Part shown: positions 31,954-38,967 of the stretch, piece after piece
How positions within the stretch are numbered: the first letter of the stretch is position 1
How the letters are laid out: each line of letters starts with the position of its first letter
From: a virus
Taxonomy: Duplodnaviria; Heunggongvirae; Uroviricota; Caudoviricetes
Virus record (IMG/VR): IMGVR_UViG_2917413769_000009
Coordinates: 1 to 44,211 of that record
Reading direction: 5' to 3' (one strand)
Length of the DNA: 44,211 nt
Notes under the pieces: generated by a model
Seen by the model: only the letters and a program-made list of their open reading frames with translations
Databases searched by the model: none
What the model was told of the DNA's origin: nothing
Position numbers and translations under genes: made by a program

Positions 31954-33330
31954 TCATACGTCAGCCCCTTGTGCATATCGTCTGCCACGTGCAGCAGGTG
32001 CATTTGATGCTGTGCAAATCTGTCTGGCTTCATCCTGGTCACATGCAACAAAGTGTCCGTTGCAGAACCGCTGGTAAACCGTACCAAGTGAGCCAAAACG
32101 GTTTTTCGTCACGATGATTTCAGCAAATGGCGCGGCGCTACTGTTCTCGTCATATACTGCTTCCCGATAGAGCATGATGATTGAGTCTGCGTCCTGTTCA
32201 ATGCTTCCTGAATCACGCAAATCTGCGTTTGTCGGGCGTTTGTTTGGTCGCTTCTCAACATCGCGCGAAAGCTGACTCAGGGAGATAACAGGCGTTTTCA
32301 GGTCTTTCGCCATCGCCTTAAGGCTTCCTGAGATGTGAGCAATTGCGAGGTCGTTGCGGTCTGCTTTCGGCTTCTCAATCAGGCCAAGATAATCCACCAT
32401 GATTAGTGACAGGTTTGGATTTTCCTGTTTGTGCCGTTCTGCGATTGAGCGTATTTCTTCGACCGATAACCGCGAGGCATCGACCACCCATACATCCAAA
32501 TCTGCAAGCTGACTCATGCCGTTAGCAACGCGCGCCCAGCCTTCGTCATCCATCGATGCAGGATTTCGCAGCACGCTAACCGACATCCTCCCGGCGTTGG
32601 CGATGCTTCGCTCTGCAATCTGCAATGCGCTCATTTCCATCGAGAAAATCAACACTCCGCGCCGGACGTCAGAACCAGGAATAACGCGGCTTGCAACGCC
32701 TTCGGCAATCTTCAGCGCCAGTTCGGTTTTCCCCATACCAGGACGAGCAGCGATTATCACCAGGTCTTCTGCGTTCATCCCTCCGGTGATGGCATCAAGT
32801 TCTTCGATTCCGGTCTTCAGGGTATCTGACTCTTCTCCGTTCCTCAGACGCCTGTCAAGCGTGTCAGTGTAGTCAGTGATGATTTCCCCTAACCGCACCG
32901 GTTTAACCTCGTCACGGGGCTTTCTGATGGCTGAAAGACGCTTTACAAGTTCATCCATCGCCTGACTCGATGCGTCGATGGTTCCGCTCTGAATTGGTTC
33001 ACGCATTTCATCCATGATTTCCAGCACCAGACGGCGGTGATAGTTATCCGCGACCATTCCGGCATATCCCTTCAGGTTTGCGGCACTCGGGCAGTTTTTG
33101 CTGGTCATCAGGATTGACGTGAAATGCTCCTCTCCGCATTCCTCAGCAACCATCAGCGCGTCGATTAGGTTTCTGTTTCTCGCCTGCTTGCGGATAACCT
33201 CGAAGGCTTTCCGGTAGAGCGGAATTGAAAACGCTTCCGGCTCAAGCGTTGCCAGAACGTCACTGGCGGTTGGAGTTAATCCACCAATCAGCAGGCCACC
33301 GATAACGCTCGCTTCGATATCCTGTCTCAT
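31954..33330 (-). CDS. DnaB-family replicative helicase
   Basis: 458 aa with Walker A GMGKT, Walker B IMVDYLG and the C-terminal RecA-like core; in the position of lambda P. Confidence 0.92.
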
Positions 33331-34148
33331 GCAATCCCCCTGTCTGCAAACTTCCCTTCCCGAACTCCCGTTAACGAGTCTTCCCTCAACAGGTAATCAA
33401 AATCAGCCGTCCAGCCCGTGTCGTTGTCTCCGAAGTAAAACGGCTTGGCCTGATGCACAAACGCCCTGACATACGCTCTGAAACCGTCTACGTTTGGCGT
33501 TTTCAGTTGTGGGATGATTTTCTTCAGGCGGCGTTTTCGTTTCTCGTTGACCGCAACAGCGTGTGGAAGTCTGTCACCGACTTCGGTGTTGTAGGCGTTC
33601 AGGAAGGATTCGTAGTCGATTCGTTCTGCCTTGCGACGTTCAGGTTTAACCTGCCCATCGCCGCCCCCGTTAGGGGGTAAGGGGGTATTTGTATTTATTG
33701 TCTTTTGTATATTGTCTTTTGTGTTTAGCTGACTTGGCTTATACCCATTAGCCGACTCGGCTAATGTTTTATTAGCTGTTTTAGCTAATGTTAAGCTGTC
33801 CTGGCTAATCCACTGAGAAACCACCTTGTTCACTCCTATTTTCACGCCATCAGCAATGAGGAATTTACGCTCAATAAGCTGGCGCTTGGCAGCGCAAACA
33901 TGAGTGTGATGAATACCTGTCATGGCTGCTATCTGCGTATTTGTGAGTCGATCCATCGGCTTATTGAATCCGTATGTCTTGCGCATGATAGCGAGCATCA
34001 CCTTCAACTGCCGGACGGTTAAATCAGCCATCAGCAGACTGTCGGTAATCTCGTTAGCAACGCGCATGAAACCATCTTCGGTATCTGCCACGCGATGCTC
34101 CACGACCTCCAGTTGAGGCCTGTAATCAGCTAACTTAACGACGCCCAT
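33327..34148 (-). CDS. O: replication initiator (O-like)
   Basis: 273 aa with ori iterons inside the coding sequence and a proline/glycine linker ([10 protein letters not shown]); ATGA-coupled to the helicase gene. Confidence 0.88.
33685..33808. other. origin of replication: four iterons (consensus TTAGCYGAYTYGGCTAA) followed by an AT-rich tract, inside O
   Basis: Iterons at 33725-33741, 33748-33764, 33772-33788, 33791-33808, each an inverted repeat; AT-rich tract 33685-33724; same architecture as lambda ori. Confidence 0.65.
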
Positions 34149-34328: not shown

Positions 34329-34625
34329 TCAGAATTTCATATCAATTTGCTTAGAGTCCCCGGCGGCCACCGGGGATTTTTTCTTTGTGATTCCATCAAG
34401 CGCATACTTAAAAGCCCTGCTAATCGGACTGATGTCTGATGCCATTCCGAAAGCACACAAGACCGAAGCAATAAATCTCCAGTCCGTTCTGCTTATCTTC
34501 GATTCATGACAGCCAATCATCTTTGCCAGACCGCGCTGTGTAAGCGTTGACAGGTTGATGAGTAAATCTGTTTCTGCGCGATCAACGTCGCGCTGTGATA
34601 GTTTGCTGTAACTTGTTCGTTCCAT
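34329..34625 (-). CDS. cII: CII-family transcriptional activator
   Basis: 98 aa in the cro-cII-O position; HTH region and C-terminus ...TKKKSPVAAGDSKQIDMKF parallel lambda CII (...TNKKRPAATERSEQIQMEF). Confidence 0.85.
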   Translation of the reverse strand: MERTSYSKLSQRDVDRAETDLLINLSTLTQRGLAKMIGCHESKISRTDWRFIASVLCAFGMASDISPISRAFKYALDGITKKKSPVAAGDSKQIDMKF

Positions 34626-34763: not shown

Positions 34764-34973
<210 letters not shown>

Positions 34974-34984
34974 TTAGTACATAC

Positions 34985-35060
34985 AGTCATTATCACCGCC
35001 AGAGGTAAAAGAGTCAACATCTGCGGTGTTAGATATTTATCCCCTGCGGTGATAGATTTA
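34985..35060. promoter_or_regulatory. right operator region OR1-OR2-OR3 with divergent PR and PRM
   Basis: OR1 TATCACCGCCAGAGGTA (34991-35007), OR2 CAACATCTGCGGTGTTA (35015-35031), OR3 TATCCCCTGCGGTGATA (35038-35054); PR -35 TTGACT / -10 GATAAT on the minus strand; leaderless cI start. Confidence 0.9.
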
Positions 35061-35061
35061 A

Positions 35062-35778
<717 letters not shown>

Positions 35779-35864: not shown

Positions 35865-36443
35865 TTGAGTATACCAACTGTCTCTCTATGGAATGAGATG
35901 GGGTTAATCCCCCCAATAGACGAGGCTGATCCTACAAGCCATACTCGTTCCCCATACAAAATGGATATAGTACGCTTTGTTAGTACTTTTTCGCTTAGCC
36001 CTGCAAGGATTAAAATCCTTAAGGGTTTTCTTAATTTTCGTGTTTCACTCACTCAAGCAGGGCTGGTTGAAGGTTTTCAGTGGGTAGATGGAAGCTTCAC
36101 AGAACATATTGAACTTATTGAAAAAAGGCCACCGAATGATGTCGATGTTGTGACCTTTTTTCAATTCAGTAATGGCGATAATGATGCAATCGTAATCGGT
36201 AGAAAGCCAGAGCTATTTGATCATGATTTTGTTAAGAAGGAGTTTTTCGTAGATTCCTACTTCCAAGAACTTAATCTACCAAGTCATGAGCTTGTTGAAA
36301 TGACTGTATATTGGTACAGTATGTGGGCACATAGACGCGATCTGTCGTGGAAGGGATTTATCCAAATCCCGTTAAACCCACAACTTGATGTTGTGGCAAT
36401 GACTATACTTAATTCGGCTGCTACTGAGGGGGTCAAACAATGA
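35865..36443 (+). CDS. hypothetical protein A of the cI-linked two-gene cassette (rexA position); possible nucleotidyltransferase-like fold
   Basis: 192-aa ORF from a TTG start (AAGG 7 nt upstream), or 181 aa from the ATG at 35898. Not hydrophobic; motif GFQWVDGSF-x14-DVDVV. Confidence 0.7.
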   Translation: MSIPTVSLWNEMGLIPPIDEADPTSHTRSPYKMDIVRFVSTFSLSPARIKILKGFLNFRVSLTQAGLVEGFQWVDGSFTEHIELIEKRPPNDVDVVTFFQFSNGDNDAIVIGRKPELFDHDFVKKEFFVDSYFQELNLPSHELVEMTVYWYSMWAHRRDLSWKGFIQIPLNPQLDVVAMTILNSAATEGVKQ

Positions 36444-37309
36444 ATCGTAATGATTATGTTTTCGCTCTCAGTGAGCGCGAGCAAATAAGTAATCTATTAA
36501 AAAATATGCCAACAAGTCATTCTATTAGCCGAAAAAGCTTAGAAGACCGTCTGGAGAAAGTTGAGCGATTAATTTCACAAGCTGACGTTCGAGAACATGA
36601 ACCTACGCATGCTGTGTTAACTTTTAGAGGCCCAACAGTAGTTGGCACGCATGGCATTTCAGCAGTATTTGGAACAAAAGCTATATCTTGTTTTAATGAT
36701 GCAATAGCTTACTTGGCAACCTCTTTCAATGGCCCACTTCCTGCATCAGGCAAGATACCAAACATAGAAAATAATCATCTCATGATTACCGCGTCAGCCC
36801 GTGGTTCTTTCGGATTCGTACTTGAAGAGTTTAGACCTGATGCTCCTCTTGAATTCGATGAAGAAACCCCAGTAGCAAAAGCTATTAATAAGGCCAGAAA
36901 AATATTTCAGGCAAGCTTGGATAATGATGATGAAGAATTGTCTGATGCTATAGAAAACTTAGACTCTCGGGCCTTAGATAAAATCAGAGCGTTCATTCAT
37001 TATCTGCATGAAAATAAAACAGTTTTTACACTTAAAAGCCAAGGTTTTAGCATCGTTTTTAGAGAGCCAAAACAGCTTGAAGCTGTATATCAACATCTCA
37101 GCAATGATAATATTCAGCAGGAAAAAATTATTGAGAACGTTATATTTTTGGGAACTCTTCCTAACAAGCGCCAATGTGAATTTATAGTTTTAGGTAACAC
37201 TGATATCAGAACCGCTAGCATTGACAAAGCTGTAGATGACCCAGATATTATAAACAAGCACTTAGGAAGCGTTGCAACAGCCACGTTCCTGAAAAAAAAC
37301 TGTTGGTAA
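36440..37309 (+). CDS. hypothetical protein B of the cI-linked two-gene cassette (rexB position)
   Basis: 289-aa ORF, ATG overlaps the stop of gene A (ATGA), SD GAGGGGG; AT-rich; no TM segments; the only motif noted is R-x6-H (RAFIHYLH) in a helical stretch. Confidence 0.7.
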   Translation: MNRNDYVFALSEREQISNLLKNMPTSHSISRKSLEDRLEKVERLISQADVREHEPTHAVLTFRGPTVVGTHGISAVFGTKAISCFNDAIAYLATSFNGPLPASGKIPNIENNHLMITASARGSFGFVLEEFRPDAPLEFDEETPVAKAINKARKIFQASLDNDDEELSDAIENLDSRALDKIRAFIHYLHENKTVFTLKSQGFSIVFREPKQLEAVYQHLSNDNIQQEKIIENVIFLGTLPNKRQCEFIVLGNTDIRTASIDKAVDDPDIINKHLGSVATATFLKKNCW

Positions 37310-37385
37310 GGGCAAACCCAGATACACTCTGGTTTCTCGACCTCAATGGGATATTAAATCTATCGATTAGAATGAGCCCCTTCAA

Positions 37386-37412
37386 CCCGGCCTCCGCGCC
37401 GGGTTTTCTTTT
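37386..37412 (+). terminator. rho-independent terminator after the cI-linked cassette (t_imm-like)
   Basis: CCCGGC-CTCCGC-GCCGGG followed by TTTTCTTTT. Confidence 0.65.
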
Positions 37413-37560
37413 ACCATCACCCCGTCAAAAACACACCTAACGAATTGTATTTATTGAATAAATATAAATCACACTTATCACATTGCGCAATTCAGCTCCT
37501 ACACATCCAGACTAGCTCTGCAAAACTTTAAAAAATAAATCAATAGTAAAAACATGCACA

Positions 37561-37632
37561 TAACCATTTGCGGTAATATTTTATCTCTAGCGGTGTTGAC
37601 GAAAATACCTCCAGCGGTGATACTAAACACAT
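37561..37632 (+). promoter_or_regulatory. left operator OL1-3 and promoter PL
   Basis: OL3 TAACCATTTGCGGTAATA (37561-37578), OL2 TATCTCTAGCGGTGTTG (37582-37598), OL1 TACCTCCAGCGGTGATA (37606-37622); PL -35 TTGACG (37596-37601), -10 GATACT (37619-37624), 17-bp spacer; start region ATCAGCAGG as in lambda. Confidence 0.85.
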
Positions 37633-37670
37633 CAGCAGGACGCTGGAAGCCAAATGGAACAGACTGGCAG

Positions 37671-37715
37671 GCTCTTTAAACAACGTCGACTCTCGACTAC
37701 GTGGCTGAAAAGCCA
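37671..37715 (+). promoter_or_regulatory. nutL (boxA GCUCUUUAAACAA plus boxB hairpin UGGCUGAAAAGCCA)
   Basis: About 40-85 nt downstream of the PL start; the boxB-like hairpin shares its core with the nutR element. Confidence 0.5.
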
Positions 37716-37813
37716 GATCACCCAACCACATAAGCTGTGGGATGCAATGCCGAAGCAACCGTCTCAGGAGGAGCTTCGAGATTGCATCGCCAAAGTTTAT
37801 TCGGGAGGAATCT

Positions 37814-38086
37814 ATGTCCAGAAAAACAGAATTTAAAGGCACCGCAGCTTCTCGCCGTAGAGCACGTCGCGCAAATCTGCAAAGTCAGGAGGCGATCAGC
37901 TCCGACAAGCTACACAGGCCAACCCCTTCACGAGTGGTCTTGCAATGCAAGCGCAAACCAGCAATGAGAGCAGAAGTTATAACTCTGACAACGTTGACCA
38001 GAAAATATGAAGGTTCAACTTGTCTTCCGAACGTAGCTCTTTACGCGGCAGGCTACCGGAAATCAAAACAACTGACAGCGAGGTAA
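37814..38086 (+). CDS. N: N-like early antiterminator (arginine-rich motif)
   Basis: First gene of the PL operon; MSRKTEFKGTAASRRRARRANLQSQEAI... has an N-terminal arginine-rich motif like lambdoid N proteins; SD GGGAGG. Not lambda N itself. Confidence 0.7.
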   Translation: MSRKTEFKGTAASRRRARRANLQSQEAISSDKLHRPTPSRVVLQCKRKPAMRAEVITLTTLTRKYEGSTCLPNVALYAAGYRKSKQLTAR

Positions 38087-38144
38087 CCTGCACTGTTCGC
38101 CAGAAAATGAAATTAGGCAGCAAACCACTTATTTGAGGTGATAT

Positions 38145-38231
38145 ATGGAAGAAGAATTTGAAGAGTTCGAAGAGCATCCGCAGGATGTGATGGAACAATA
38201 CCAGGACTACCCTTATGACTACGACTATTGA
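38145..38231 (+). CDS. acidic 28-aa peptide (lambda orf28-like position)
   Basis: MEEEFEEFEEHPQDVMEQYQDYPYDYDY, overlapping the ral start in another frame. Confidence 0.45.
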   Translation: MEEEFEEFEEHPQDVMEQYQDYPYDYDY

Positions 38232-38415
38232 TAAGAATCAATGGTGTGGACAATTCAAGCGATGCAATGGATGCAAGCTGCAATCGGAATGCATGGTTAA
38301 GCCTGAAGAAATGTTTCCTGTAATGGAAGATGGGAAATATGTCGATAAATGAGCAATACGAACGACGGCAATGATTGCCAGAGAACTTGGTAAACAGAAC
38401 AACAAGGCTGCCTGA
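38215..38415 (+). pseudogene. ral: ral (restriction alleviation) interrupted by an in-frame TGA at 38350-38352
   Basis: MTTTIDKNQWCGQFKRCNGCKLQSECMVKPEEMFPVMEDGKYVDK-stop-AIRTTAMIARELGKQNNKAA; lambda Ral as recalled has Trp (TGG) at this codon and runs on to the same C-terminus. Confidence 0.6.
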
Positions 38416-38549
38416 TGGTGGCCTTTATTTTTGGCATAAACAACAGAATAAACACAGCACTGTGTATTCATTCCAACGAGTGAATACACGGAGCAATGTC
38501 GCTCGTAACTAAACAGGAGCCGACTTGTTCTGATTATTGGAAATCTTCT

Positions 38550-38580
38550 TTGCCCTCCAATGTGAGGGCGATTTTTTATC
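38550..38580 (+). terminator. rho-independent terminator within the PL operon (tL-like)
   Basis: GCCCTC-CAATGT-GAGGGC followed by GATTTTTTAT (stem 38552-38569, T-run 38572-38577). Confidence 0.55.
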
Positions 38581-38589
38581 TATGAGGAT

Positions 38590-38967
38590 ATGAATAGATG
38601 TCAAACATCAAAAAAATACATCATTGATTACGACTGGAAAGCATCAATAGAAATTGAAATCGACCATGACGTAATGACAGAGGAAAAACTTCACCAGATT
38701 AATAATTTCTGGTCAGACTCTGAATACCGACTCAATAAACACGGCGCTGTATTAAATGCTGTATTAATCATGCTGGCGCAACATGCTCTGCTTATAGCAA
38801 TTTCGAAAGACTTAAATGCATATGGTGTTGTTTGTGAGTTCGACTGGGATGATGGAAATGGTCAGGAAGGATGGCCTCCAATGGATGGTAGTGAAGGAAT
38901 AAGAATTACCGATATCGATACATCAGGAATATTTGATTCAGATGATATGACTATCAAAGCCGCCTGA
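38590..38967 (+). CDS. Ea10-like early protein; probable true start at the ATG at 38598, disrupted by an extra A in the A7 run
   Basis: The long ORF starts at an ATG with SD spacing of only 1 nt. The ATG at 38598 has good SD spacing but reads MSNIKKIHH-stop; with A6 instead of A7 (38610-38616) it would read MSNIKKYIIDYDWK... into the long ORF. Confidence 0.5.
   Translation: MNRCQTSKKYIIDYDWKASIEIEIDHDVMTEEKLHQINNFWSDSEYRLNKHGAVLNAVLIMLAQHALLIAISKDLNAYGVVCEFDWDDGNGQEGWPPMDGSEGIRITDIDTSGIFDSDDMTIKAA

Follow-up and report, generated by a model that had tools for sequence, protein, structure and literature searches.

A DUF6932 nucleotidyltransferase and its non-HEPN partner form a candidate conflict module at the rexAB position of a lambdoid prophage

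What kind of module do two overlapping genes form when they occupy the place behind a prophage repressor where lambda carries rexA and rexB? The DNA in question, termed the window, is the whole 44,211-nt stretch of IMG/VR record IMGVR_UViG_2917413769_000009, which is a lambdoid (lambda-like) prophage around a gene pair encoding proteins A and B. From short motifs, the initial annotation had tentatively read A as a minimal nucleotidyltransferase (MNT) of the Pol-beta type and B as a HEPN RNase, together a toxin-antitoxin (TA) or abortive-infection module. Both open reading frames (ORFs) and all of the quoted amino acid strings are found where that annotation placed them, and the two halves of its reading fare differently: the nucleotidyltransferase (NTase) assignment of A is borne out, whereas the HEPN assignment of B fails. 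The reading favored here, with a probability of roughly 0.55, is a conflict or defense module built on an active NTase and a non-HEPN partner.

Protein A and its key residues are located as follows.

35865..36443, plus strand: protein A, 192 amino acids, TTG start; DUF6932 family, predicted Pol-beta-fold NTase
36090..36095, plus strand: hG[GS] motif (G76-S77 codons), located where predicted strand 70-76 ends; invariant
36138..36146, plus strand: DxD metal-binding motif (D92-V93-D94 codons), located where predicted strand 93-99 begins; D92 and D94 invariant
36252..36254, plus strand: codon for D130, a third catalytic-type carboxylate, in predicted strand 129-135; invariant

On the evidence of its sequence family and structural model, A is very probably a true, though divergent, NTase of the Pol-beta fold whose predicted active site is intact. 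The core of Pol-beta nucleotidyltransferases is laid out with GS at the end of the first strand, DxD on the second, and a further carboxylate on the third. In A, these elements are carried by the strings GFQWVDGSF (residues 70-78), DVDVV (92-96), and FFVDSYF (127-133), with exactly 14 residues between GS (76-77) and DVDVV and with D130 placed 36 residues after D94. The signature lies far above chance. In an alignment of 62 family members with identities down to 37%, G76, S77, D92, D94, and D130 are all invariant, as are R59, G70-F-Q-W73, E83, P90, Y149, W150, H156, and W162-K-G164. The aspartates of the DxD motif had previously been numbered D87 and D89; the motif is real, but counting from the TTG start gives D92 and D94. 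This start is also the one used in RefSeq and is backed by conserved residues upstream of Met12.

The AlphaFold model of A (predicted local distance difference test score, pLDDT, 91.9) has an alpha-beta-alpha-beta-alpha-beta core similar to that of solved NTases. At the profile level, A matches Pfam DUF6932 (PF22014) at 2e-26, with 93.6 bits against a gathering cutoff of 27 and coverage of profile positions 3-141 of 142, and it is a member of phrog_9194. It also matches PDC-M63A, a PADLOC model, at 2e-10. No named NTase family (NTP_transf_2, Polbeta, AbiEii, and others) is matched by A; in Pfam, DUF6932 is the only hit for all 62 members at E <=10. NCBIfam contains nothing for A or B, and PDB sequence searches with phmmer and with profiles yielded only spurious matches for either protein (designed PPR repeats, a BAG domain, and an RF2 coiled coil). 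A literature search found no mention of DUF6932.

The features of B that bear on its identity are the following.

36440..37370, plus strand: protein B, 309 amino acids when intact; in the window, a frameshift closes the ORF at 37309 (289 amino acids)
36803..36817, plus strand: codons for G122-S123-F124-G125-F126, invariant in 101 members; the block lies in a beta-hairpin formed by strands 114-119 and 124-130, with E129-E130 after it
36986..37009, plus strand: codons for RAFIHYLH, residues 183-190, the putative HEPN motif; not conserved

The case for HEPN rested on the R-x6-H spacing within RAFIHYLH. Shuffling shows how readily such a pattern arises, with at least one R-x4-6-H in 77% of shuffled versions of B, and only 11 of 101 B relatives have one in the aligned helix. 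Across the family, R183 is 73% conserved, while the commonest residue is Glu at position 187 and Ala at position 190. The original caution that both motifs could be due to chance was therefore apt for B but not for A. No HEPN profile matches B, and the all-alpha, four-helix up-down bundle expected of the fold is missing from its model. By motif statistics, conservation, profile, and fold alike, HEPN identity is ruled out for B.

What, then, is B? Protein B of the window has no match in Pfam, NCBIfam, or PADLOC (in PADLOC, none even at E <=1), and no Pfam model matches any of its 101 aligned relatives. Intact B also finds nothing by tblastn against GenBank phages. The protein belongs to phrog_18731 by similarity (1e-46), and all of its PHROGs matches are labeled as of unknown function. 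The family itself is large: a database at 90% identity contains 664 matches, and at 50% identity there are 1,995 representatives, 772 of which match at E <=1e-30. Its members are nearly all 295 to 325 amino acids long and carry no recurrent fusions; homologues of intact B measure 303 to 321 amino acids.

The sole fully invariant block among the 101 members is GSFGF (122-126), and G64 and F77 are invariant as well. Near-invariant positions are R37, T117 (99%), E129, R177, P241, and E247. Most conserved residues are Gly, Phe, or aliphatic, and the 101 relatives share no conserved set of His, Asp, Cys, or Lys that would hint at a hydrolase. With no evident catalytic residues in its alignment, B looks like a binding partner rather than an enzyme. 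The GSFGF hairpin might serve as a ligand-binding loop or as a site of modification, though these are only suggestions.

The predicted model of B is confident (pLDDT 93.7) and mixed alpha/beta. Residues 3-47 form an N-terminal helical hairpin, residues 57-130 a domain of sheet plus helix, and residues 144-191 three helices, and the C-terminal part (195-297) is rich in beta strands. Within the last of these, residues 225-297 follow the order strand-strand-strand-helix-strand-strand. Foldseek detects no structural relative of the overall fold in the PDB. The local matches with reasonable geometry are all OB folds, namely, those of the LysRS anticodon-binding domain, SSB/Rim1, RPA, CST, eIF5A, ExoVII, and CusF/SilF. 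For the C-terminal part of B, the model accordingly offers an OB-like barrel as a lead that falls short of demonstration. Membrane segments are absent from both proteins (the maximum hydropathy of B is 1.18).

A pair composed of an NTase and a putative ligand-binding protein could in principle signal. In a scheme like that of CBASS or Hailong, A would make a nucleotide or oligonucleotide signal upon infection, and B would bind it via the OB-like barrel or the GSFGF loop and respond. This is highly improbable. At 192 amino acids, A is much smaller than the CD-NTases and has no significant profile match to them, and B lacks a recognizable effector domain as well as a transmembrane segment.

Whatever their activities, A and B travel together. 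In the window, the stop codon of A and the start codon of B share four nucleotides:

36440..36443, plus strand: ATGA overlap of the A stop and the B start, indicative of translational coupling

When loci were recovered with the A profile, a B-family ORF was found immediately downstream of A on the same strand in 78 of 80; in the other two, the sequence stops within 130 nt of A. Some overlap between the genes is present in 77 of 82 related loci, and in 61 it is 4 nt. Because of this pairing and these overlaps, A and B are an obligate pair and constitute one unit. The hosts of the 80 loci include Enterobacterales, Pseudomonadota generally, Planctomycetota, Myxococcota, Chlorobi, a Clostridiales metagenome-assembled genome (MAG), and archaea of the Methanothrix/Methanomicrobia group, and the pairing is also found in Caulobacter segnis. 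The two families are carried by roughly 580 or more species. Four copies come from methanogenic archaea (Methanothrix, Methanomicrobiaceae, and Methanogenium MAGs; loci L042, L043, L050, and L085), in which A is 45-47% identical to that of the E. coli prophage, which implies that the pair has spread widely by horizontal transfer across domains.

The position of the pair in the prophage is the second clue to its role. The elements that define this position are listed below.

35065..35778, plus strand: cI-type prophage repressor (Pfam HTH_3, 5e-12; Peptidase_S24, 6e-27)
37384..37415, plus strand: intrinsic-terminator-like hairpin (37384-37405) and T-tract, just past the stop codon of intact B
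37596..37624, plus strand: PL-like promoter, TTGACG-17-GATACT, facing N, at the right-hand boundary of the swapped segment
37742-38086: N-like ORF
34989-35017, minus strand: PR-like promoter-like site, TTGACT-17-GATAAT, facing cro
34764-34964, minus strand: cro
34329-34625, minus strand: cII
33327-34148, minus strand: O-like gene

At the DNA level, the cI gene, which lies directly upstream of the A-B pair on the same strand, is ~90% identical to its lambda counterpart. The similarity shared with lambda, HK106, mEp234, and other phages ends ~10 nt past the cI stop codon, and lambdoid homology (N, ral, and Ea10) picks up again at ~37632. By sequence comparison, the segment from ~35789 to ~37631 is therefore a swapped cassette standing where lambda has rexA-rexB. 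Its GC content is ~0.40, as opposed to roughly 0.50 across most of the window. The PR-like and PL-like sites, with hexamers of the lambda type, flank the cI-A-B block, an arrangement known from the immunity region of lambda.

The cI-to-N interval is a mosaic hotspot that houses the abortive-infection genes rexAB and bstA, which are expressed in the lysogen alongside the repressor (Owen et al., PMC8585504). The A-B pair shares the position and orientation of lambda rexAB and BTP1 bstA: it comes directly after cI and before PL/N, with a terminator behind it. A search of the 86-nt gap between cI and A revealed no promoter-like site, and by analogy with cI-rexA-rexB, A and B probably share the lysogenic promoter of cI. 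The terminator-like hairpin has an 8-bp stem with six G-C pairs, followed by TTCTTTT, and is the probable end of a cI-A-B transcript, making it a counterpart of lambda t_imm. If co-transcribed with cI in this way, A-B would be an accessory cassette of the cI-to-PL slot that is expressed in the lysogen. The likeness to rexAB and bstA does not extend to the proteins: no Rex or BstA model in PADLOC or Pfam is matched, and RexB has a membrane segment, whereas A and B have none. Membership in the RexAB, AbiEii, and CD-NTase groups was considered and dropped, as none is backed by a profile match.

The pair is carried by 8 of 5,426 complete E. coli genomes, with a DNA identity of 99.6%. E. coli CE10 has the same cI-A-B cassette in a prophage (L001, 1535-4299 and 8284-8907) with a different replication module: a toprim-domain protein and an HTH protein take the place of the O-like gene and 458-amino acid ORF of the window. 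Since the cassette is the same and the backbone differs, the cassette moves between mosaic lambdoid backbones.

Outside this slot, the pair keeps similar company. Nearest neighbors were surveyed at 78 loci by bulk scans based on crude ORF calls. HsdS is the commonest upstream neighbor, HsdR recurs downstream, and HsdM is found further upstream. Genes of type I restriction-modification (R-M) systems lie within two ORFs of the pair in 19 of the 78 loci, six of which are nested in the order hsdS/M, A-B, hsdR. Additional neighbors are RhuM, Abi_2, Abi_C, PIN, MmeI-type enzymes, and CI-type repressors. The last of these, seen in Citrobacter, Atlantibacter, and Superficieibacter, show that the prophage arrangement is a recurrent one. 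Given the rexAB/bstA slot, the 19 loci near type I R-M genes, and the Abi_2, Abi_C, RhuM, and PIN neighbors, the pair is associated non-randomly with defense genes or hotspots.

This setting bears on the simplest alternative, namely, that A-B is not a conflict system at all but performs housekeeping or lysogenic conversion, such as nucleic acid repair or modification or an ANT-like nucleotidylation of small molecules, and is merely borne by mobile elements. Its mobile setting is common to both views. However, the patchy distribution noted among E. coli genomes, a GC content foreign to the prophage, the rexAB/bstA slot, and the repeated insertion between hsdS and hsdR together point to a mobile accessory module under conflict-type selection, and a non-conflict role is very unlikely. 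The module most likely acts in phage defense or inter-element conflict, and the earlier suggestion of a two-gene, TA- or Abi-like conflict module is plausible in that it fits the genomic context.

Whether either protein is toxic on its own can be approached through damaged copies, one of which is that of the window itself.

37292..37299, plus strand: A8 homopolymer, one base longer than the A7 of all eight complete E. coli genomes that have the pair

The initial annotation ended B at 37309, and the ORF does close there, but this end is an artifact of the one-base insertion. With the longer run, NCW takes the place of the final 23 residues of B, so that, in the model, strand 5 of the barrel is lost entirely and strand 4 loses its end. 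Deletion of one A in silico restores a B protein of 309 amino acids, ending at 37370 and differing by one residue from the database protein P0001, and the restored tail (TVGKGKPRYTL...) is conserved in distant relatives. Programmed frameshifting at the A run was considered and is unlikely, given that distant relatives do not conserve the Lys-Lys codons and that A7 is found in all eight complete genomes. Either a sequencing error in the homopolymer or a genuine mutation, inactivating or phase-variable, could account for the A8 run. As read, the frameshift lies at the 3ʹ end of B, and the module in this window is therefore probably crippled.

Two other loci carry a damaged member. In Cupriavidus sp. 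D384 (L078, 5608-5814), A is intact and only the first 55 residues of B remain. In a Tepidisphaerales MAG (L019, 4980-5570), the reverse is seen, with an in-frame stop codon in A and an intact B. Because A persists with damaged B (the window and L078) and B with interrupted A (L019), these copies, degraded in both directions, weakly argue that neither A nor B is lethal alone. They likewise speak weakly against strict addiction.

These copies are relevant to the main rival of the favored reading, a type VII TA logic similar to that of MntA-HepT. In such a scheme, B would inhibit growth by binding, and A would silence it by nucleotidylation, for example at S123 or T117, until infection or loss of the element relieved the block. 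The NTase-first gene order and the tight coupling match MNT-HEPN modules, and MNT-HEPN pairs, too, are typically nested within type I R-M operons. Protein B offers a Ser and a Thr as candidate acceptors; the Ser is invariant and lies in an equally invariant Gly-rich hairpin, and the Thr is 99% conserved. The two genomes in which A is intact and B is damaged are what would be expected of a dispensable, toxic B. Nevertheless, this scheme is rather unlikely. B is not HEPN and is without conserved catalytic-type residues, and the intact B beside an interrupted A in L019, which is a MAG, should be lethal if B were a toxin. The pair further departs from MNT-HEPN modules in A itself, which is larger (192 amino acids), is extended at the N terminus by conserved sequence, carries a helical YW..H..WKG region at the C terminus, and shows no sequence-profile link to MNTs of the NTP_transf_2 type.

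The opposite assignment, in which A would be the toxin, nucleotidylating tRNA or another RNA in the manner of AbiEii or MenT, and B the antitoxin, is unlikely on other grounds. Translation-blocking NTase toxins are an established class, the NTase residues of A are invariant, and the genomic context resembles that of defense systems. Like A, AbiEii and MenT are Pol-beta-fold NTases of two-gene defense or TA modules. However, neither Pfam nor PADLOC reveals any similarity of A to AbiEii/DUF1814, the gene order is reversed relative to AbiEi-AbiEii, and the partner is unrelated. Moreover, A remains intact beside the 55-residue B of L078 and the frameshifted B of the window, and this persistence speaks against an unrestrained toxin.

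The favored reading, a conflict or defense module composed of an active NTase and a non-HEPN partner, has evidence weighing against it as well. No recognizable defense neighbor is present at 59 of the 78 loci, as far as the crude ORF calls allow. The evidence from degraded copies amounts to three cases, one of them a MAG, and the frameshift of the window could be a sequencing error. Finally, deletion of PDC-M63AB, a related candidate system, from a prophage of E. coli NILS69 produced no phenotype against 10 phages. This is the sole related test, and the study reporting it is the only one on PDC-M63 recovered by a literature search.

The relation to PDC-M63AB is best seen in A. All 62 A relatives match PDC-M63A models (best, 1e-16). 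By contrast, only 8 of the 101 B relatives match PDC-M63B, weakly and through four different models (best, 4e-5), and B of the window and the other 93 relatives match none. Both systems are two-gene modules, and the NILS69 example also resides in a prophage. Judged by these profile matches, the pair belongs, as a divergent branch, to the PDC-M63AB candidate superfamily, which is itself unvalidated and known only as a computational candidate. PADLOC would not call the present locus because B of the window matches no PDC-M63B model. Thirteen of the 101 B relatives (alignment A4) weakly match PDC-M32A, another uncharacterized PADLOC candidate (best, 1e-6). A B-like domain may be shared among several candidate systems; ten divergent members chosen for mapping the region shared with PDC-M63B or PDC-M32A matched nothing.

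How might such a module work? One possible sequence of events, offered tentatively, starts with A and B being made in a fixed ratio and forming a complex. B would act as the sensor or adaptor, binding a nucleic acid cue or substrate by means of its OB-like barrel and GSFGF hairpin; candidate cues are phage single-stranded DNA or RNA or the end of a tRNA. A would then transfer nucleotides onto the molecule held by B. This nucleotidylation would block translation or replication and abort the infection, a chemical outcome like that of the MenT/AbiEii NTases, from which the scheme borrows its chemistry of RNA-end nucleotidylation.

Broader still, and doubtful at present, is the proposal that A-B represents a new pan-prokaryotic defense system that substitutes for rexAB in lambdoid prophages, in which B presents phage nucleic acid or host tRNA for 3ʹ-nucleotidylation or, alternatively, is itself switched by nucleotidylation of Ser123. 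If either version were true, the pair would found a new family of NTase-based immunity. No two-gene anti-phage system combining an NTase with an OB fold was found in a literature search.

Should the module prove to defend, it would be a widespread NTase-based system, with ~2,000 B clusters at 50% identity and a range from enterobacterial prophages to Planctomycetota and methanogens. As B has neither a Pfam model nor a detectable structural relative, its mechanism cannot simply be copied from MNT-HEPN, AbiE/MenT, or CBASS. The locus is also a concrete, testable case of cassette exchange at the lambda rexAB position, and the A8 allele of the window, as a natural C-terminal truncation of B, could supply a built-in loss-of-function control. 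Even without a phenotype, annotators should treat a DUF6932 gene and its neighbor of about 305 amino acids as one unit and should not label the neighbor HEPN.

Several loci show further variety in the surroundings of the pair. On metagenomic contig SRR25568473_857 (L002, 35-9755), A-B is part of an integrase-bearing island together with a DUF4238 gene, a SMODS-domain gene with a Tle1-like phospholipase neighbor, and an HTH/Peptidase_M78 pair, and the whole looks like a composite defense island. In the CE10 prophage, an Nmad5-family putative nucleotide-modification gene is located downstream. Past the cassette, positions 37632-38700 of the window share 96-98% identity with many E. coli and Stx phages, whose annotations for this region name the N antiterminator, ral (restriction alleviation), and Ea10; in some of these phages, sieB is nearby.

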